Positions 31,795 to 41,187 of a stretch of DNA of 64,000 bases are shown here, in pieces. Every line of letters starts with the position of its first letter. The first letter of the stretch is position 1. The notes under the pieces are model-generated. The model was not told where the DNA came from. It did not search any database and worked only from the letters and a program-made list of their open reading frames with translations. The stretch comes from Patescibacteria group bacterium (GTDB lineage: Bacteria > Patescibacteriota > Patescibacteriia > Buchananbacterales > UBA6539): NCBI GenBank assembly GCA_028688055.1, contig JAQTYZ010000003.1, positions 66,752 to 130,751 on the forward strand. Direction: 5' to 3'. Both the position numbers and the translations under genes were made by a program.

Positions 31795-31806
31795 GGAGAG
31801 TTAAGC

Positions 31807-31878
31807 TCCGAGGTAGCTCAACGGTAGAGCAGTGGACTGTTAATCCATTGGTTCCGGGTTCGAATCCCGGCCTCGGAG
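31807..31878 (+). tRNA. tRNA-Asn (anticodon GTT), intronless
   Basis: U1:A72 and G73 as in bacterial tRNA-Asn; D-loop AACGGTA, anticodon loop CUGUUAA, T-loop TTCGAAT; 72 nt. Confidence 0.8.
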
Positions 31879-32103
31879 GAGGCTGGACGCGTTCCCGGAG
31901 ACCGGTTTGAGGCAGTCAACTTAGCCAAAAATAGTAGTCGTCAGTTTGTGTCCAATCCTAGGTGAGAAATCAGTTTAGAACCAGATAGCAAATTAGAGTC
32001 CAGTGATTAGGTAATACATAAGTGTTCTCGGCGACTGGCTCCGCCGATCAAAGGCTTGAAAATTTAAAACTGAATATTTATACTTCAAAAAAGAGTCATG
32101 TGC

Positions 32104-32460: not shown

Positions 32461-33750
32461 TTATTTTACTAGAGAGACCTTTTGGTTTTTAAGATAGAGT
32501 TCAGTTTTTAAACAAGCCAATATCTCCCGCTTCTCATCGCGAGTTCCTTCGGCTAGTAAGTATTTAACGTATTCCTTGATGTCCACTTCGGACATTTTTA
32601 TTTCATCTCGGTTATTACCCTTGGAAATTAGCGTATTAAATTTTTGGTAACGCTCCATTTCCTGCTGCATTTTTTTCAGCGTACCCAACTTATCCAGTTC
32701 AATCTGATCAATTATTTTGAGCAACTCCTCGATTAATGTTTCTTCTCTGACGTACGCTTCTTTGCAATTGTAATCTTTGAATCGGTTACAGTGGTAGTAG
32801 ACGTAGCGTTTTATTGAACCATCATGTTTGATCTTTTTGAATTTATCTTCGGCTGTGACCCCTGATCCGCATGAACCACACTTAATCATGTTGGCGAAGT
32901 CAAATTCTTTGGTACCAGGTTTTAATTTCGGTGCTACCTCGAGATGTATCTTGACTTCGTTAAATAGATCTTTACTGATTAATGCCTGATGCGAACCTTT
33001 GTAGAATATTCCTGAACCCACCGGATACTCAAACTCGCCGTAATAGAAATGATTTTTGAGCATATTGTAAATACTACTCAATGCTATTTTCTTTCCGCTC
33101 CTCGTCCTAAATCCGATTTCATTCATCCATCGCTTGAGTGCCCGACCACTGTATCCTTGGTAGGCAACCTTTTCAAACATTTGAGTGATTACCGGCGCTC
33201 GCTTTGGATCAAGATATACTTTCCGCTGACCCTTCGTTTCGCCAATTCCGTGGAGGTAACCAATCGGAGGATAGCCTGGTCGCCAGCCCTGTTCACATTT
33301 GGCGCGAAGCCCTCGTTTAACATTCACTCCCTTGGCATCGTTTTCTAGTTTGGCAGTACTACCTAGGATCATCAACAAGAATTTTTCGTTCGGTGAATTA
33401 CCAAAGGTTTGTCCGTAGGTTTTTATCTGCTTCAAGATTCCCTGATCCATAAAATCAATGAGCTTGCCAAGGTCACCGGCGTTTCTGCTCAACCTATCAG
33501 GTGCCCAAGTTAAAATGGCGTTGTATTTTTCAGTTCGCAATGCCTCAACCATTTTATTAAATACCGGTCGTTTACCCGAATCTTTAGCTGAATGAGACTC
33601 CTCAAATGTCTCAAGGATTTCAATATTTTCTCGTTTGGCCACTACCGCCATTTCTTTATTCTGTGTTGGGATAGAAAGCTGTTGGAGTTCGTCAGACTCC
33701 GTGCTTTTCCGGCTATAGAGGCAATACCTCAAATTTTGTTCTAAGTCCAT
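32461..33750 (-). CDS. Large serine recombinase (resolvase-domain integrase)
   Basis: YSRKSTESDELQ catalytic Ser motif, DRLSRN, recombinase domain, zinc ribbon CGSCGS...YYHC, coiled-coil tail; adjacent to tRNA genes. Confidence 0.85.
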   Translation of the reverse strand: MDLEQNLRYCLYSRKSTESDELQQLSIPTQNKEMAVVAKRENIEILETFEESHSAKDSGKRPVFNKMVEALRTEKYNAILTWAPDRLSRNAGDLGKLIDFMDQGILKQIKTYGQTFGNSPNEKFLLMILGSTAKLENDAKGVNVKRGLRAKCEQGWRPGYPPIGYLHGIGETKGQRKVYLDPKRAPVITQMFEKVAYQGYSGRALKRWMNEIGFRTRSGKKIALSSIYNMLKNHFYYGEFEYPVGSGIFYKGSHQALISKDLFNEVKIHLEVAPKLKPGTKEFDFANMIKCGSCGSGVTAEDKFKKIKHDGSIKRYVYYHCNRFKDYNCKEAYVREETLIEELLKIIDQIELDKLGTLKKMQQEMERYQKFNTLISKGNNRDEIKMSEVDIKEYVKYLLAEGTRDEKREILACLKTELYLKNQKVSLVK

Positions 33751-34035: not shown

Positions 34036-34950
34036 GTGGCATTATTTAAAATAATCGGCTCAACCGTAAAAAAAATCACCGCAAAAGAGCTTGACTTGGA
34101 GAAAAACCTGCAGACGCTTTTTGAAAATAATCTGGAGGAGTTATTGAACATTTTTTTTCTATCTCATGAGCATTCAACTGGCTTCGGTGGTAGAATTGAC
34201 ACACTCGGCATAGACAAGGATGGTGCGCCCTGCATTATTGAATACAAAAAAAATCAGAACAACAATGTTATCAATCAGGGACTTGCTTACCTTTATTGGC
34301 TGTTAGATCACAAAGCCGATTTTGAGAAAATTTGTCGGAATAATAAAATTGGTATCGAAATCGATTGGGATTCTCCCCGAGTTATTTGCGTAGCTGAAAG
34401 ATACAACAATTTTGATCTGGATACGGTCAACGTTTTGCCGATTAATGTTGAGCTTTGGCGCTACCGTATTTACGACGAAAATATTCTCTTTTTAGAGCCG
34501 GAGAATTTCCAGAAAGTTCGAATATCTACGGCCAGTATTATGCGGAAGACGAAGTATGATAGGGAAAAGCAGGAAATTATCCAAAAAAATTATTCGGTGG
34601 GAGAGCATCTTGCAAAAGCAGGTGAAGACATTAAATCGCTGTTTTTGAAGTTGCGCGAGAAAATAATCTCACTCGACACCGAGATTAAAGAAGATCCACA
34701 AAAAAACTACGTGGCTTATAAGTTATCAACGAATTTTGCGGACGTGGAAATCTACCGCAATCAACTTAAAATTTTCCTGAATGTAAAAAGCGGCCAGCTT
34801 AATAATCCTGATTCCATTGCCCGTGATATGGAAAATCCAAGGCACATCGGTCACCACGGCAATGGCGACTATGAATTAAAGCTGGAAAGCGATGAAGATA
34901 TGGATAAGGTGTTTTCACTTATCAAGCAAAGCTACGATCTGAATAAATAA
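34036..34950 (+). CDS. PD-(D/E)xK nuclease-superfamily protein (NucS/DUF91-like core), candidate restriction endonuclease (GTG start)
   Basis: GRIDTLGIDKDGAPCIIEYKK (D...ExK); directly upstream of an EcoRI-family MTase. Confidence 0.45.
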   Translation: MALFKIIGSTVKKITAKELDLEKNLQTLFENNLEELLNIFFLSHEHSTGFGGRIDTLGIDKDGAPCIIEYKKNQNNNVINQGLAYLYWLLDHKADFEKICRNNKIGIEIDWDSPRVICVAERYNNFDLDTVNVLPINVELWRYRIYDENILFLEPENFQKVRISTASIMRKTKYDREKQEIIQKNYSVGEHLAKAGEDIKSLFLKLREKIISLDTEIKEDPQKNYVAYKLSTNFADVEIYRNQLKIFLNVKSGQLNNPDSIARDMENPRHIGHHGNGDYELKLESDEDMDKVFSLIKQSYDLNK

Positions 34951-34954
34951 TATT

Positions 34955-36025
34955 ATGAGTACTCGATCACTAAATAGAAGTCTTCATAAGGCAAGCCAGG
35001 CAAAAAATGATGAGTTTTATACTCAGCTTGGCGATATTGCTAATGAGCTCCGGCATTACCGAGACCAGCTTAGCGGCAAGGTGATTCTTTGTAATTGCGA
35101 TGATCCATTTGAGAGCAACTTTTTCAAATATTTTGCAGCTAATTTCAACACGCTTGGGCTCAAGAAGCTCATCGCCACTAGTTATCAGAAGTCGCCGATT
35201 GTCGGCGGACAACTATCGCTTCTTGATATTGAAGGGCTCAAGCCGGAAGGGAGAGAACCGTATGTGGTGGAGATCAACGAAGTGCCGGATATGAATAGCG
35301 ACGGAGCGATAAGTTTGGATGATGTAGAGCATCTGCTTAAGCACAATAAAAATATCGCGATGCCGCTTAAAGGTGGCGGTGATTTTCGAAGTAAAGAATG
35401 TATTGAGCTTCTTAAAAAAGCCGATATTGTCGTCACCAATCCACCGTTCTCGCTCTTTCGGGAATATGTCGCACAGTTAATTGAGCATAACAAAAAATTT
35501 CTTATAATCGGCAGCAAAAACGCTATCACATACAAGGAAATTTTTAAGCTCATAAAAGAAAACAAATTGTGGCTTGGATATGGCTTTGCGGCCGGAAACG
35601 CATTTTTCAAAATTCCGGCAGAGAAAGCGCGCGAATTTGCGGCTGGTGTATATGATTCAAAAACTGGCCTTGTAAAGTTTCGTAATGTTGGATGGTTCAC
35701 CAACCTTTATGTTGATAAATCCGAAGATCCGATCACGCCCTATCTCACCTATGAGCAGGGACGCAAGAAAGGGCTTTATCCGAAATATGACAACTATGAC
35801 GCTATTGAAGTTTCGAAAGTCGCAGAAATTCCAAGTGATTACAAAGGCGTTATGGGCGTGCCTATAACGTTCTTAGACAAATGGGCACCCGAAAGCGGCA
35901 TAGAGATAGTCAAATTCAGAAAAGGCGATGATGATAAAGACCTAGCGTTTACGAGAGAGAGAGAGAGAGTACAACCGTACTTCAGAATACTCATTCGCTA
36001 TCGTCGGGCAAACAGGAGTCATTGA
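34955..36025 (+). CDS. EcoRI-family N6-adenine DNA methyltransferase
   Basis: N-terminal LHKA..NDEFYTQ and ILCNCDDPFESNFFKYFAANF are characteristic of the M.EcoRI family (from memory of the family); NPPF motif IV; (GA)8 tract 57 nt before the stop. Confidence 0.65.
   Translation: MSTRSLNRSLHKASQAKNDEFYTQLGDIANELRHYRDQLSGKVILCNCDDPFESNFFKYFAANFNTLGLKKLIATSYQKSPIVGGQLSLLDIEGLKPEGREPYVVEINEVPDMNSDGAISLDDVEHLLKHNKNIAMPLKGGGDFRSKECIELLKKADIVVTNPPFSLFREYVAQLIEHNKKFLIIGSKNAITYKEIFKLIKENKLWLGYGFAAGNAFFKIPAEKAREFAAGVYDSKTGLVKFRNVGWFTNLYVDKSEDPITPYLTYEQGRKKGLYPKYDNYDAIEVSKVAEIPSDYKGVMGVPITFLDKWAPESGIEIVKFRKGDDDKDLAFTRERERVQPYFRILIRYRRANRSH
35953..35969 (+). repeat. (GA)8 microsatellite inside the MTase 3' coding region
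   Basis: CGAGAGAGAGAGAGAGAGTAC; a +/-2 nt change switches to an alternative, longer C-terminus. Confidence 0.9.
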
Positions 36026-36229
36026 GCCAGATGGAATCTGTATTGAGTACAAGGCGGGCAGGCCGTACATTAAGGGACAAAGGAAGTATGCGAGATTATT
36101 TATTAAGCAAAAACAAATTTGAAATCCTTGGCATCGCAAACTCTGCGCGATGGATAGGATACAAATTATATACGATTATAGATGGCCGAAAAATTTACAA
36201 TAGGATTATAATTAGACGAAGATAATAAT

Positions 36230-37327
36230 ATGAATATAGAACTCAAAAATATCAAAATACGCGACGTAGTGAAGGGCTACAAAGACAGTGGCGAGAGCGG
36301 CGTGGTTGGTTACGGCGGCAAACTAAACATTCGTCCGGCGTTTCAGCGCGAGTTTATTTACGGCCAGAAAGAGCGCGACGCTGTTATAAGGACAGTACGG
36401 TCTAGCTTCCCGCTCAACACAATGTATTGGTCGGTGGACAGAGACGGCGGCTTTGAACTCATGGATGGACAACAGCGCACCATTTCTATTTGCCAATATG
36501 TCACCGAGATTATCCCAATAAAGTTTGATGACGGCTACGAACTGGCATTTAACAATTTGACCACCGATCAGCAAGAGAAGATTTTGAATTATGACCTCTC
36601 CGTCTATATCTGCGAAGGAACGGAAAGCGAAAAACTTGCATGGTTTCGGACGATCAATATCGCAGGCAAGCCATTAACCGATCAGGAACTCTTAAACGCC
36701 ATGCACACTGGGCCGTGGCTTGCCGATGCCAAACGCTGGTTTAGCAAGACAGGCGGACCGGCGTATCAGATTGGCGAAAATTATGTAAACGGCTCGCCGA
36801 TTCGCCAAGATTATCTGGAAAAGGCGCTTGACTGGATTTCGGATGGAAAGATTGAGAATTATATGAGCCGCCACCAGCAAGACAAAGACGCGCAGGAATT
36901 GTGGCAGTATTTTCAAGAAGTCGTAGCATGGGTTGAGCGCGTATTCCCCGAGTATCGAAAAATTATGAAGGGCTTAGAATGGGGGCGATTTTACAATGAG
37001 CACAAGGGCGATAAATTAAATGCGGCAAGCTTGGAAAAACGAATTGCGGGATTGATTGAAGATGACGAAGTAGATAATAAGAAAGGTATTTATGAATATC
37101 TTTTGACCGGAAACGAGAAGACGCTCAATCTGCGCGCCTTTGATGAAAAGACGAAAGTTAAACAGTACGAGAAACAGAAAGGAATTTGCCCGACATGTAA
37201 GAAACATTTTGAAATTGATGAAATGGAAGCTGATCACATTGTTCCATGGAATCAAGGTGGAAAAACAATGGAGAAAAATTGCCAGATGCTGTGCAAACAG
37301 GACAATAGGACTAAGTCTGGGAAATAA
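36230..37327 (+). CDS. DUF262 (ParB-like NTPase) - HNH nuclease fusion, GmrSD-like type IV restriction candidate
   Basis: RPAFQREFIY and DGQQRTISI (DUF262 signatures); C-terminal HNH DHIVPWNQGG...C..C..DN. Confidence 0.7.
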   Translation: MNIELKNIKIRDVVKGYKDSGESGVVGYGGKLNIRPAFQREFIYGQKERDAVIRTVRSSFPLNTMYWSVDRDGGFELMDGQQRTISICQYVTEIIPIKFDDGYELAFNNLTTDQQEKILNYDLSVYICEGTESEKLAWFRTINIAGKPLTDQELLNAMHTGPWLADAKRWFSKTGGPAYQIGENYVNGSPIRQDYLEKALDWISDGKIENYMSRHQQDKDAQELWQYFQEVVAWVERVFPEYRKIMKGLEWGRFYNEHKGDKLNAASLEKRIAGLIEDDEVDNKKGIYEYLLTGNEKTLNLRAFDEKTKVKQYEKQKGICPTCKKHFEIDEMEADHIVPWNQGGKTMEKNCQMLCKQDNRTKSGK

Positions 37328-37330
37328 AAA

Positions 37331-38698
37331 ATGAGTATGAACATGGAAAATTCAAAATGGAAAAAGAAAGATATCGCTATTAAAGACCTTTTGCTGTGGG
37401 ATGAAAACGCGCGTTTTTCTGATCAGTATTTTGACCTCTCGGAAGAAGACCTGTTGAAACATTTCTTAATAAGTAAATTTCAGCTACTTAAACTTGCTGG
37501 CGAGATGGAAAAAGATGCCGACCTTCCTCAGTTGGAAAAAATTGTTGTCTGGCGTTCCAATGATCGTAATATAATTCTTGAGGGCAATAGACGAATCGCC
37601 GCATATAAATTACTGGCAAATCCGAAATTGGCCGGTGTTCAAGAAAGTAAATTTTCAAAAATTGGGTCAAAGGTTGGGATTTCCGAAGACTTCGAAGTTG
37701 AATGTCTTGTCACTGAAGATTTGGAACAAGGTTACCGATTTATCGAGAGAAAGCACCTTAATCAAAACAACGAAGTTTCTTGGGGTTCAAATGAGATCGC
37801 CCATCATAAAGATCGCCGAGGAAAGGCCGGTGAAAAAGAACTAATAAGAGTCGGTATTACGAAAGTTGTTAATGACCTCGAAATGGCAAACGAGTTAAAG
37901 GAAGCCGTCTTGGGACCGGGATATGTAACTACTTTTTGGAGACTGACCGGACAAACACCCGCCCAGCAGTATTTTGGCTTCTCTTTCGGTGATGATAAAA
38001 AGTTGAAAATAAAAGATGGTGACTTCGATAAAAAACTGAAAGTTATTGTCTGGGATGTACTCAAAAACGGCCAGTATAAGGGAAAGTTGTTTTCTCGTTT
38101 AAATAATGCGGAAATATCGGATTATTTGAAAAATATTTCTGATAAAGATTACAATCGAGCATCGCAAGAGATAGAAGAGGCAGAAAACAATAAACAGAGT
38201 GATCTTTTCGGGAAAGCGAGCGTTGCTACGAACTACAATTTTAGGATACGAAAAACTCCGGTTACTAAAACTGGAAACGACCTTTTCGGCAGGACTTTAG
38301 CTTTACAGTCCGGCCATGTAAATGATTTATATCGCGCCCTTGCAGATATTGATAAAAAAAATCAAGGTAACGATGCGGTTTTGCCGTTTTTGGGTATGGC
38401 CCTGCGTCTTTTAGTAGAAGTTGCCGCTCGCGTGCATTATGACAATAATGGCGACAAAGAAAAAGCTAAAAAGGATCAAATTTGCGAGATATTTTTGAAA
38501 GAAGCGAAGAAGAAACTAAATCAGCATCGAAAAAATGATATTTCCCTTACTAATGATTGGCTTTCAGATAAAAGAAATCTTAGTGCTATTTTGGACAAGT
38601 ATGCTCATGGCCAAATTGTTTGTAAACGTGCCGATGTATTAAAAGATTCATACATTGTCGCTGATATTTTAGATTTCTACTTCGAAAAGAAGTCTTAA
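37331..38698 (+). CDS. ParB-like nuclease-domain protein, function unknown
   Basis: LLLWDENARF and ILEGNRRIAAYKLL resemble the ParB/Srx N-terminal domain. Confidence 0.45.
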   Translation: MSMNMENSKWKKKDIAIKDLLLWDENARFSDQYFDLSEEDLLKHFLISKFQLLKLAGEMEKDADLPQLEKIVVWRSNDRNIILEGNRRIAAYKLLANPKLAGVQESKFSKIGSKVGISEDFEVECLVTEDLEQGYRFIERKHLNQNNEVSWGSNEIAHHKDRRGKAGEKELIRVGITKVVNDLEMANELKEAVLGPGYVTTFWRLTGQTPAQQYFGFSFGDDKKLKIKDGDFDKKLKVIVWDVLKNGQYKGKLFSRLNNAEISDYLKNISDKDYNRASQEIEEAENNKQSDLFGKASVATNYNFRIRKTPVTKTGNDLFGRTLALQSGHVNDLYRALADIDKKNQGNDAVLPFLGMALRLLVEVAARVHYDNNGDKEKAKKDQICEIFLKEAKKKLNQHRKNDISLTNDWLSDKRNLSAILDKYAHGQIVCKRADVLKDSYIVADILDFYFEKKS

Positions 38699-38703
38699 TT
38701 TAT

Positions 38704-39552
38704 ATGCAAAAGATACCACGAAAAAGAAACCAAAAATTACACTGTAGCCCGTTAAGATATCCCGGAGGGAAGACTTTTTTATTTCCTTTCTTTGATAATG
38801 TCATAAAGGATAACGGATTGGAAAAGGTTACCTATGTCGAACCGTTCGCCGGTGGTGCCGGTGCGGCACTGGTTTTGCTACTATCCGGGAAAGTTGATCG
38901 CATTGTGATTAATGACTTGGATAAAGCTATCTATGCTTTTTGGAAATCGTCTATATTTAATCCCGACAAATTTATAAAAAAGATAAAATCAACCCCGGTA
39001 ACCATTAATGAATGGAAAAAGCAAAAGGCGATTTATAATAACCCGAAGGCTAGTCTCTTTGATCTCGGTTTTGCCACTTTTTTTCTCAATAGAACTAATA
39101 CGTCCGGCATTTTGGACGGCGGACCTATTGGAGGATTAAGACAAAAAGGTAAATACAAAATCGATGCCAGATTTAACAAGGACACTTTGATAGAACGAAT
39201 ACAGCGGATAGCCACACATAAAAAGAAAATATCAGTTTTTAATAAGGACGGACTTAGGTTGATTGGTGAGTATTTAAATAAAAAGAATACATTTATATAT
39301 CTTGACCCACCTTATTTTGAAAAAGGCGCAACACTTTATCTAAACCACTATAAAAAAGAAAATCACGAGGCTCTGGCTAAAAAGCTAAACGATAACCCTG
39401 ATGCCTTTTGGCTGTTAACGTATGATAACAAAAAAGAAATTAAGTCACTTTATTCGAACAGACATATCATCAACTTTTCGCTGAATTACAATGCCTACAA
39501 ATCCCGCAATGGTAGAGAAGTTATGATTATGTCAGATGCGCTCATAAGGTAA
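38704..39552 (+). CDS. Dam-family (D12 class) N6-adenine DNA methyltransferase
   Basis: LRYPGGKTFL SAM-binding N-terminus, DPPY catalytic motif (YLDPPYF). Confidence 0.8.
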   Translation: MQKIPRKRNQKLHCSPLRYPGGKTFLFPFFDNVIKDNGLEKVTYVEPFAGGAGAALVLLLSGKVDRIVINDLDKAIYAFWKSSIFNPDKFIKKIKSTPVTINEWKKQKAIYNNPKASLFDLGFATFFLNRTNTSGILDGGPIGGLRQKGKYKIDARFNKDTLIERIQRIATHKKKISVFNKDGLRLIGEYLNKKNTFIYLDPPYFEKGATLYLNHYKKENHEALAKKLNDNPDAFWLLTYDNKKEIKSLYSNRHIINFSLNYNAYKSRNGREVMIMSDALIR

Positions 39553-39719: not shown

Positions 39720-40685
39720 ATGATGTGTACTTTGACGGGAGTTTCCGACCTTGACGAGTTGTCTCATGCCCATTGGAAGGCGTTAGCCAACAAATGCGGC
39801 GGTCTGGAAAATGTTATTGCCGTCCTGCAAGGAGAGCAAGAGATTACCCTCCGGGAAATCATCAAGCTCCTCATTGACCGGAACGGTCGTGGCATCCCCG
39901 ACAAGTCGGTGGTGAAGTCGAATGTGTGCGACGCAAACCGCGCATACTACTTTGACCGCCTGCCGGACGATTACGACTTTGCCGCCATGCTGTCATTGTG
40001 GCAGGAGCGCTTCAAGCAGAATCCGGGCATGGATGCCAAGGAATTCCGCGAGCGTATCGCTGGCATCCGGGGAATGATTGCGGCTAACCGCCAGATCAGA
40101 AATCTGGACACACCAAACGCCGCGCCGTGGTTCCCGCTTATCCTGCCGCAGATTCCGTTGCAAAAGCCCGAAGGCGACGAAGCAGTCGAGGCCAAACAAA
40201 TGGACTACGGCACATTGCTCGAAGACACCTTGTTGCCCGCCGTCGAGGCGAGTTACATTGCGGCCTACCCCCAGCGGCAGTTTATCAACTACCGCAAGGG
40301 TGAGCTGTCAGGACAGGTGACGATCGTCGAGGAACGTCACGCCAAGCTCTACCAAGACTTGGCCAACGGTCCGATTATCGGGATTTTGTTCCCGACAGCG
40401 TTGCACGGCTTCAGCCCGTTTGCCCAGCGCGAGATGATCACCCTTATGCCAGAGCACTGCTCACTTGAGGGACCGATGGACATGGGTGTCGCCGAAACGC
40501 TGTACACACGGCAACTGTCGCGTGACAACAACACGCCCGTGAAAGACTGCTCTGCAGTCCAATGGCGGGACCCCGAGTACTCGCTGTACTTCAACGCCGA
40601 CGACGACGAGCTCGGGTTCGACTACGGGGACGACCTCGGCCTTGCGTACGGCGGCTCTGCGGGTGGGGTGTTCTTCCGCGGGTAG
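39720..40685 (+). CDS. DGR target (variable) protein; the C-terminal 40 codons form the variable repeat
   Basis: GC-rich ORF whose 3' 120 nt (40563-40682) is an A-mismatch-only copy of the TR at 41050; RBS GGAGGA. Confidence 0.75.
   Translation: MMCTLTGVSDLDELSHAHWKALANKCGGLENVIAVLQGEQEITLREIIKLLIDRNGRGIPDKSVVKSNVCDANRAYYFDRLPDDYDFAAMLSLWQERFKQNPGMDAKEFRERIAGIRGMIAANRQIRNLDTPNAAPWFPLILPQIPLQKPEGDEAVEAKQMDYGTLLEDTLLPAVEASYIAAYPQRQFINYRKGELSGQVTIVEERHAKLYQDLANGPIIGILFPTALHGFSPFAQREMITLMPEHCSLEGPMDMGVAETLYTRQLSRDNNTPVKDCSAVQWRDPEYSLYFNADDDELGFDYGDDLGLAYGGSAGGVFFRG
40563..40682 (+). repeat. DGR variable repeat (VR)
   Basis: 120 nt aligned to TR with 16 substitutions, every one at a TR adenine. 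Confidence 0.85.
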
Positions 40686-40756
40686 TGAATTGGTCTTTGA
40701 CCTTTGGTACCTTGATACTTTTGGTGCCTTGGTCAGATCACGCTACTTATTTAATC

Positions 40757-41049: not shown

Positions 41050-41169
41050 TGGCAGGACCCCGAGTACTCGCTGTACTTCAACGCCAACGACGACAAGCTC
41101 AAGTTCGACAACAGGAACAACCTCGGCAATGCGAACGACAACTATGCGGGTGGGGTGTTCTTCCGCGGG
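41050..41169 (+). repeat. DGR template repeat (TR), rich in AAC codons
   Basis: TR-only adenines at all 16 VR/TR differences (AAC to GAC/TAC/GGC etc.); shared GC-rich 3' end GCGGGTGGGGTGTTCTTCCGCGGG (IMH-like). Confidence 0.85.
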
Positions 41170-41187
41170 CAGTGTCTTTACTTCAAG

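Follow-up and report, generated by a model that had tools for sequence, protein, structure and literature searches.

A GA repeat as a likely selector among three C-terminal modules in an EcoRI-family methyltransferase gene of a Patescibacteria bacterium

What is the purpose of a mutable dinucleotide repeat close to the 3' end of a DNA methyltransferase gene? The question is raised by the window analysed here, a stretch of 64,000 nucleotides (nt) from a Patescibacteria group bacterium (assembly GCA_028688055.1, contig JAQTYZ010000003.1, positions 66,752 to 130,751), in which the forward-strand open reading frame (ORF) 34955–36025, encoding an EcoRI-family methyltransferase, holds a (GA)8.5 tract at 35953–35969. 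Comparison of this locus with its relatives indicates that the tract is likely to act as a three-state, slipped-strand switch of C-terminal modules in the methyltransferase of a conserved pair, the second member of which is a DUF262-HNH protein.

The tract and the three endings of the methyltransferase

The GA run is perfect (100% matches by Tandem Repeats Finder and in the raw sequence). Dinucleotide-preserving shuffles gave a chance expectation of 0.09 matches per 64 kb to a 12-nt GA pattern with one mismatch tolerated; the window has 12 such matches, all inside this tract and a second one at 42127–42151, and the tract at 35953–35969 is genuine and beyond chance. The tract is separated from the stop codon by 54 nt (18 codons), or by 57 nt with the stop counted, and the encoded protein ends in ...TRERERVQPYFRILIRYRRANRSH before the stop. 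An earlier sequence-only reading had given the tract coordinates, the 57-nt distance, the current tail and a longer alternative tail correctly. In Pfam, the protein matches the EcoRI-family N6-adenine DNA methyltransferases (PF13651) with 421–426 bits for all three tail versions described below, against a cut-off of 26.4. The methyltransferase motif TNPPFSLF lies at residues 161–168, with N162, P163, P164 and F165 invariant across 60 aligned sequences. The gene is assigned to PF13651, and its product is predicted to be an N6-methyladenine methyltransferase. The parts of the locus are as follows.

34955–35952, + strand: constant part of the methyltransferase, residues 1–332, with the catalytic motif TNPPFSLF and the conserved segment GVMGVPITFLDK...IEIVKFRKGDDDKDLAF (Pfam PF13651, 421 bits; PADLOC MTase_II PDLC03297; NPPF alignment; 46% identity to M.EcoRI)
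35953–35969, + strand: (GA)8.5 repeat, the proposed switch selector, encoding an (Arg-Glu)n linker; its 17 nt set frame A (Tandem Repeats Finder)
35970–36025, + strand: tail A, in frame now, VQPYFRILIRYRRANRSH, stop at 36023–36025; a short, predicted terminal beta-strand of M.EcoRI type (M.EcoRI alignment; model)
35970–36122, + strand: tail B, +1 frame, YNRTSEYSFAIVGQTGVIEPDGICIEYKAGRPYIKGQRKYARLFIKQKQI, stop at 36120–36122; overlaps tail A in another frame (translation; Pfam)
35971–36117, + strand: linker of tail C, frame -1, stop-free, TTVLQNTHSLSS...RDYLLSKNK; the DNA of tail B in the third frame (translation)
36118–36225, + strand: module C proper, FEILGIANSARWIGYKLYTIIDGRKIYNRIIIRRR, stop at 36223–36225; ends 4 nt before the nuclease start codon (match to the tail of locus L021)
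36230–37327, + strand: partner, a putative nuclease with GmrSD_N/DUF262 and HNH domains (Pfam PF03235 and PF01844; PADLOC REase_II PDLC03418, E 6.9e-134, full length)

Translation revealed that all three frames after the tract are open, giving proteins of 356 (A), 389 (B) and 422 (C) amino acids (aa). The tract follows residue 332 in each of them, and every frame thereby keeps most of the protein and acquires a new C-terminus; a change of one GA unit in either direction alters the C-terminal 18, 50 or 84 residues. Frame A, the frame as it stands, ends in the tail VQPYFRILIRYRRANRSH, which contains …VQPYFRILIRYRR…. Frame B, reached by a gain of one or a loss of two GA units, has a 50-residue tail (EYNRTSEY...FIKQKQI) ending in KYARLFIKQKQI, while frame C, reached by a loss of one or a gain of two units, has an 84-residue tail ending in KFEILGIANSARWIGYKLYTIIDGRKIYNRIIIRRR. 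The earlier expectation that a change of 2 nt either way would yield the longer tail holds for the gain of 2 nt (or the loss of 4 nt), but the loss of 2 nt opens the third, 84-residue tail instead.

To place the current ending, we compared the window protein with M.EcoRI from an authentic EcoRI system, found by a plasmid search on the Escherichia coli plasmid NZ_OW967970.1, where R.EcoRI is annotated beside its methyltransferase. The as-is protein is 46% identical to M.EcoRI over the full length, with the alignment reaching within 2 residues of both ends. Tail A aligns with the M.EcoRI C-terminus FELIKFRKGVDEKDLSINGKCPYFRILIKNKRLQK (also given as FRKGVDEKDLSINGKCPYFRILIKNKRLQK, ...CPYFRILIKNKRLQK and ...KDLSINGKCPYFRILIKNKRLQK), and the (Arg-Glu)n stretch stands where M.EcoRI has 'SINGKC'. 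The as-is protein also covers positions 1–330 of 332 of the PADLOC Type II methyltransferase profile PDLC03297, and the short tail of type A is the commonest among repeat-free relatives. Because tail A matches the M.EcoRI end, the PADLOC profile and the commonest repeat-free tail, the methyltransferase does not appear to be 'off' in the window.

These comparisons bear on the classical explanation, in which the frame-B protein alone would be functional and the current frame would be an inactive or truncated 'off' state. Repeats in phase-variable methyltransferases usually switch the gene on and off, and only the version with one more GA unit reaches the last position of the Pfam profile (2–345 of 345, versus 2–308 for the as-is version). 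The gain in score for tail B, however, is only 4.5 bits; tail A aligns with M.EcoRI and nearly completes the PADLOC profile, and is predicted to form the terminal strand; and the third frame also ends in a bona fide module. We consider the on/off explanation very unlikely. The longer tail had been called more protein-like in the sequence-only reading: it is indeed a genuine family C-terminus that fits Pfam end to end, but the short tail is equally of family type. That reading had also named homologues supporting the short tail as evidence against itself; such homologues were found, yet others support the remaining two tails, which points to a choice among A, B and C rather than between on and off.

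Structural models were consistent with complete endings in both states modelled. The AlphaFold2 model of the A form (the window protein) had a mean predicted local distance difference test score (pLDDT) of 74, and that of the B form (P0001, 96% identical to the window B version) a mean of 77. In both models, a terminal strand was predicted with confidence, at residues 344–349 in A and 379–383 in B, with low confidence confined to the repeat linker. A terminal strand of the pattern Y/F-x-R-I/L-x-I ends every family member, and each of modules A, B and C supplies one; modules B and C restart at a strand resembling 'FEIxG', followed by variable loops that differ between them. Module C has a counterpart in locus L021, where a repeat-free Saccharibacteria methyltransferase has as its only in-frame tail a sequence 85% identical over 33 residues (E 9e-24). 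By these comparisons, A, B and C all have the make-up of genuine family-type C-terminal modules.

Conservation and variation among relatives

The comparison drew on 240 related loci, found in genomes, in metagenomes and on viral contigs, and covered the DNA following the conserved GVPITFLDK segment. The metagenome scan had at least five close relatives among the matches listed, and the viral scan found no relative closer than 64%. The best database relatives (72–96% identity, mostly from Patescibacteria metagenomes) fall into size classes of about 358, 385–395 and 415–436 residues, which differ in the number of Arg-Glu repeats and carry the A, B and C tails, respectively. A repeat at the equivalent site, after FRKGxDxKDL, is present in 32 loci including the window. 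Five repeat types occur at this one site in distant lineages: (GA)n, (AG)n, poly-G, (AGAC)n or (CAGA)n, and (AGAAC)3.

Comparison of repeat-bearing and repeat-free loci revealed a sharp division. A family-type terminus occurs in all three frames in 27 of the 32 repeat loci and in two frames in 3, while 2 loci with doubtful 8-nt repeats have one or none. In the 193 repeat-free loci there is never more than one family-type frame, even with every offset scanned. Moreover, of 63 modules that lie out of frame, 58 have a match in a repeat-free relative, as its only in-frame tail. Tails that are out of frame in the window are in frame elsewhere, tail B in P0001, P0002, P0004, L002, L081 and L243, and module C in P0006, P0009, P0019, L001, L007 and L244; the open linker of tail C is kept in L001, L003, L007, L241, L243 and L244, regardless of the current frame. 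In four loci of gut Clostridia and other metagenomes (L055, L059, L063 and L101), the alternative frames begin again at an earlier point and repeat all of the G(V/I)MGVPITFLDKYNPEQFEIIG segment (GVPITFLDK...FEIIG); the tetranucleotide tract is 108 nt long in L063 versus 24 nt in the related L059. As a separate observation, P0003 (387 aa, 87% identical to the frame-B construct) has TRGGGGGVSHTSEYSF at the position of T(RE)nYNRTSEYSF in the window; its tract is probably poly-G instead of GA, within the same clade as the window.

The DNA flanking the tract is conserved unevenly. Among nine close relatives, 40% of the columns in the 240 nt before the tract are variable, including 71 of 80 third-codon positions, whereas variation in the first 30 columns after the tract is limited to 5, of which 4 differ in one sequence. 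The post-tract block GTACAACCGTACTTCAGAATACTCAT can be read in three ways, as VQPYFRILI, YNRTSEYS and TTVLQNTH, and can still be recognised as conserved where the repeat is poly-G or AGAC. This pattern indicates that the sequence after the tract is under constraint in more than one frame. It also bears on the possibility that an error of assembly or sequencing produced the tract length, or that the gene is a decaying pseudogene with accidentally open frames. Dinucleotide repeats can be miscalled, and the other GA tract of the window does interrupt its gene; but an independent assembly gives an identical tract, the three-frame layout recurs in loci of different phyla and in none of the repeat-free controls, and decay does not fit a post-tract sequence that is more conserved than the pre-tract sequence. 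The probability of artefact or decay is negligible.

Analysis of tract length showed that it predicts the frame. In the clade of the window (80–90% nucleotide identity), the tract measures 9, 13, 15, 17, 19, 21, 23 or 31 nt, and a remainder of 2, 1 or 0 after division by three corresponds to A, B or C, with no exceptions. The window and L241 are in state A, L243, L002 and L081 in state B, and L244, L001, L003 and L007 in state C; all three modules are intact in every locus of this clade, whichever one is in frame. Three human-gut contigs (L150, L158 and L160), 99.1–99.6% identical over 2.3–3.3 kb, carry 8, 13 and 18 AG units and, measured between fixed flanks, are in two different frames; a first assignment of these contigs to three frames was rejected by the same measurement. 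The viral contig L173, about 95% identical to them, is in the third frame. Overall, the short state is in frame in 8 of 30 repeat loci and a long module in 22, close to the 1:2 that use of all three states would give. A coding repeat that alters the product, and whose length differs between close genomes with the flanks unchanged, is what characterises a simple-sequence-repeat contingency locus, and both features were observed. The sequence-only reading of the tract as a hypermutable repeat in a restriction-modification-type pair is borne out, since its length differs among relatives and changes the protein. From these data, we infer high-frequency reversible switching within populations.

The proposed mechanism would operate in the following way. 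Slipped-strand mispairing during replication would add or remove GA units of 2 nt, with each gain moving the frame from A to B, from B to C and from C back to A, and each loss moving it in the reverse direction. Residues 1–332, including the catalytic core, would stay constant and be followed by the (Arg-Glu)n linker and then by one of the three modules. Module A would be a minimal, M.EcoRI-type ending, and the DNA of module B, kept stop-free in the third frame, would serve as the linker to module C. With the switch at position A, as in the window, the enzyme would be complete. A variant would place the choice at the level of expression, with slippage of RNA polymerase or ribosomes on the GA run producing a mixture of the A, B and C isoforms from one template and the DNA tract length setting their proportions. 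A 2026 preprint reported frame-dependent frameshift suppression on (AG)n with a Mycoplasma bovis mod fragment in E. coli; however, DNA length variation among near-identical loci is directly seen and is enough to explain the pattern, and we regard slippage at the RNA level as improbable.

Several points weigh against the slipped-strand switch or against the role of its modules discussed below. Exact look-ups of the window methyltransferase and nuclease found only one other contig; it belongs to an independent assembly of this population (Logan SRR22315507), matches at 100% over 6.1 kb and likewise carries a tract of 17 nt. The test for terminal motifs was a regular expression of our own design, although the module comparison by BLAST supports it independently. 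No solved structure matches the family by sequence, and a fold search matched the Rossmann core only, so that contact between module and DNA is a matter of inference. Finally, if the nuclease has a fixed target of its own, a change of methylation specificity would be self-destructive, favouring another role for the modules.

The partner nuclease and the role of the modules

The gene immediately downstream encodes the putative DUF262-HNH nuclease, and the adjacent methyltransferase and restriction endonuclease genes fit the layout of a Type II restriction-modification system, as judged from their domains. Directly 3' of the methyltransferase, 23 of the 26 repeat-bearing loci and 105 of the 158 repeat-free ones have a homologue of the nuclease; the pair is thus kept in 128 of the 184 loci with enough flanking sequence. 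Nuclease identity tracks the identity of the methyltransferase core (r = 0.68, 115 repeat-free pairs) but is not raised by a common tail module (residual -0.30 versus +0.06), and core identity is the same in same-module and different-module pairs (54.6 versus 54.5). These comparisons of core and nuclease identity indicate that modules are exchanged independently of both. Nuclease similarity does not follow module type, which leaves two options: specificity is not set by the modules, or the nuclease does not read sequence on its own.

The independence of the nuclease also fits a fail-safe arrangement, in which the repeat would be tolerated or kept as a flexible linker and the frames repaired so that slippage never destroys the methyltransferase, the three forms being equivalent. 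The roughly equal frequency of the three states agrees with this idea, as does the strong selection expected against loss of a nuclease-paired methyltransferase, which would be lethal. On the other hand, M.EcoRI and most relatives manage without a repeat at this site, and the presence of five unrelated repeat types at one site in distant lineages argues for selection for mutability itself. Modules B and C are strongly different, belong to cassette types common to several phyla, and in some loci involve duplication of the GVPITFLDK...FEIIG segment, which exceeds the needs of repair. A fail-safe is therefore unlikely in our assessment.

The position of the stop codon relative to the nuclease gene suggests a further possibility. 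The stops ending at 36025 (A), 36122 (B) and 36225 (C) leave 204, 107 and 4 nt, respectively, before the nuclease start at 36230, and the geometry is similar in relatives, with a 198-nt gap in L241 (state A) and a 1-nt gap in L244 (state C). Because the gaps differ by frame, the switch position may change translational coupling to the nuclease. The switch might then chiefly tune the nuclease, by setting the ratio of restriction to modification, or the module might be a contact surface for it; the conserved pairing of the two genes agrees with such a role. This explanation leaves the family-type module in each frame and the diversity of modules unaccounted for, and no full-length nuclease homologue was detected immediately downstream in 3 of the 26 repeat loci (two of them with doubtful repeats). 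As the chief function, tuning of the nuclease is quite unlikely, but it is compatible with a module switch, and the two are not mutually exclusive.

For the module switch itself, the most likely effect is an alteration of the DNA sequence methylated, to which we give about an even chance. A change of specificity is favoured because the swapped segment sits where gamma-class adenine methyltransferases carry the target-recognition region, because within the family this is the hypervariable part, built like a cassette, and because the nuclease stays constant whatever the module, as does Res in Type III systems, where the methyltransferase supplies specificity. More tentatively, the three modules may correspond to three target specificities, with the DUF262-HNH nuclease taking its target from the methyltransferase or from the methylation state; we rate this as possible rather than probable. 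If it holds, a system of Type II appearance would follow a logic like that of Type III, cycling among three restriction-modification specificities, and three methylomes, by single GA units. Any change of specificity by the modules would provide a new and very compact route to diversify methylomes and phage defence.

A second mosaic segment was noticed inside the methyltransferase core, at about residues 205–245, where P0018, P0023, P0027 and P0030, otherwise close relatives of the window protein, have LGYDNGGTKWFQVPDHYDI...KYFSMG in place of LGYGFAAGNAFFKIPAEKAREFAAGVYDSKTGLVKFRNVG. This segment may be another part of the recognition region.

The surrounding island and comparison with known systems

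The neighbourhood of the methyltransferase contains the following features.

31806–31879: tRNA-Asn
32461–33750, - strand: large serine recombinase with Resolvase, Recombinase and Zn_ribbon_recom domains (Pfam)
34036–34950: PDC-S18 candidate (DUF5655), upstream of the methyltransferase (PADLOC, E 5.9e-96)
37331–39552: PD-Lambda-5 A and B pair, downstream, B being a D12-class methyltransferase (PADLOC, E 1.3e-113)
39720–40685: target gene of a diversity-generating retroelement (DGR), with the variable repeat at its end (40563–40687)
41050–41174: DGR template repeat, forming a 125-nt pair with 40563–40687 (86% identical); Asn-rich where the target has Asp, Tyr or Gly
41216–41590, - strand: Avd gene (NCBIfam NF033474, 84 bits against a cut-off of 80)
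42127–42151: (GA)12.5 tract splitting a DGR-type reverse transcriptase into ORFs 41564–42226 and 42244–42669 (Tandem Repeats Finder)
43520–44608: PDC-S11/NucS-like protein, further downstream (PADLOC)

These assignments place the methyltransferase in a predicted defence island, of which the tRNA-Asn followed by the serine recombinase is probably the integration end.

The second GA tract behaves differently from the first. The reverse transcriptase is out of frame in the window; with one GA unit fewer it becomes an RVT_1 protein of 367 residues, and each of the two remaining frames meets a stop within about 30 codons. Among the best 120 homologues of the reverse transcriptase, 30 have Arg-Glu repeats at this site, just before the GLPIGN motif, and others have runs of Gly or (Ser-Leu)n. 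Because homologues bear repeats at the same site, the tract is best taken as a separate on/off repeat site of the reverse transcriptase family. On/off phase variation of DGR reverse transcriptases may, these homologues suggest, be common in Patescibacteria; a literature search found no report of it. The sequence-only reading had proposed that the two GA tracts share the flank motif GTT(T/C)(A/C)CGAGAG and a common origin. The motif fits the methyltransferase tract only, the reverse transcriptase tract having GTTCC-GAGAG, one base shorter, and the true common flanks amount to one C before and TAC after the tract. A common origin was rejected because the 3' flank in the methyltransferase, including the TAC, is the triple-coding block that is conserved even beside poly-G and AGAC repeats, and because the reverse transcriptase tract is a repeat site conserved in its own family with different flanks.

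Among known systems, M.EcoRI shares with the window methyltransferase the Pfam family, the NPPF motif and the short C-terminus of frame A, but has neither a repeat nor alternative frames, and its partner is R.EcoRI rather than a DUF262-HNH protein. The literature on PF13651 offered little on topology or specificity: a methyltransferase-classification preprint, Nanomotif and a paper on PBCV-1 simply list it among the profiles used. Phase-variable methyltransferases have been described as switching on and off, or as alternating between full-length and truncated HsdS; repeat-driven variation is usually treated as binary, and the known multi-state specificity switches use recombinases and separate cassettes. 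A 2023 paper proposed a fusion disrupted by (TA)n as the first Type II example of a phase-variable methyltransferase. In DCM8/DAM3 of Metamycoplasma hominis (PMC10305163), the recognition region of a Type II methyltransferase likewise contains a dinucleotide repeat, (TA)n, of heterogeneous length, but the protein there is either full-length or disrupted (the DAM3 part being on or off) and does not alternate between functional tails.

Type III mod phasevarions (PMC1557822) are similar in combining a repeat in an N6-adenine methyltransferase, a cassette-like recognition region and a conserved nuclease that does not co-vary. Their repeats act on/off and their specificities are alleles in different strains, whereas the window gene holds three alternatives. 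Membership of the window pair in Type III was rejected: the partner has GmrSD_N and HNH domains, not those of a Res helicase-nuclease with SF2 helicase and PD-(D/E)xK, and the methyltransferase belongs to PF13651, not to N6_N4/TypeIII, so that the resemblance is one of logic only. Type I hsdS switching likewise offers one locus, alternative modules and a stochastic choice made in DNA, as in NgoAV (PMC9577141) and in shufflons (PMC7672463, PMC9881135). NgoAV, however, has two states, full-length or truncated HsdS, and shufflons depend on site-specific recombination between separate cassettes; in the proposed switch, the alternatives are stacked in overlapping frames inside the methyltransferase gene, and the repeat length chooses.

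Also among the closest known systems is C-terminal phase variation (Snyder et al. 2010, Helicobacter canadensis, PMC2823697; Zelewska et al. 2016, Neisseria gonorrhoeae, PMC5320596), in which a simple repeat near the 3' end shifts among three frames and a protein with a different C-terminus is made, as in the methyltransferase. The reported cases involve homopolymer tracts, a few to a few dozen unrelated residues and individual genes or species, and homologous alternative tails were not reported among them. The methyltransferase switch differs in that the alternatives are homologous, family-type modules, one frame is held open through another module, and the arrangement is conserved across phyla and repeat types. 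Full-text searches of an incomplete library found no account of a design in which three homologous modules occupy the three frames, although one may have appeared earlier in a subscription journal. As far as we found, the layout is undescribed, and the three-frame module switch extends known C-terminal phase variation. One gene stores three functional-looking endings in overlapping frames, and the repeat length picks one of them; gene callers report proteins of 356, 389 or 422 aa, or frameshifted genes, and the alternatives are overlooked. The layout occurs in tiny-genome Patescibacteria, in human and animal gut bacteria and in their viruses. If the modules do set three specificities, the switch would stand beside hsdS shufflons as a compact alternative built on overlapping frames, and would be widespread among Patescibacteria, the Bacteroidales and Clostridia of the gut, and their phages.

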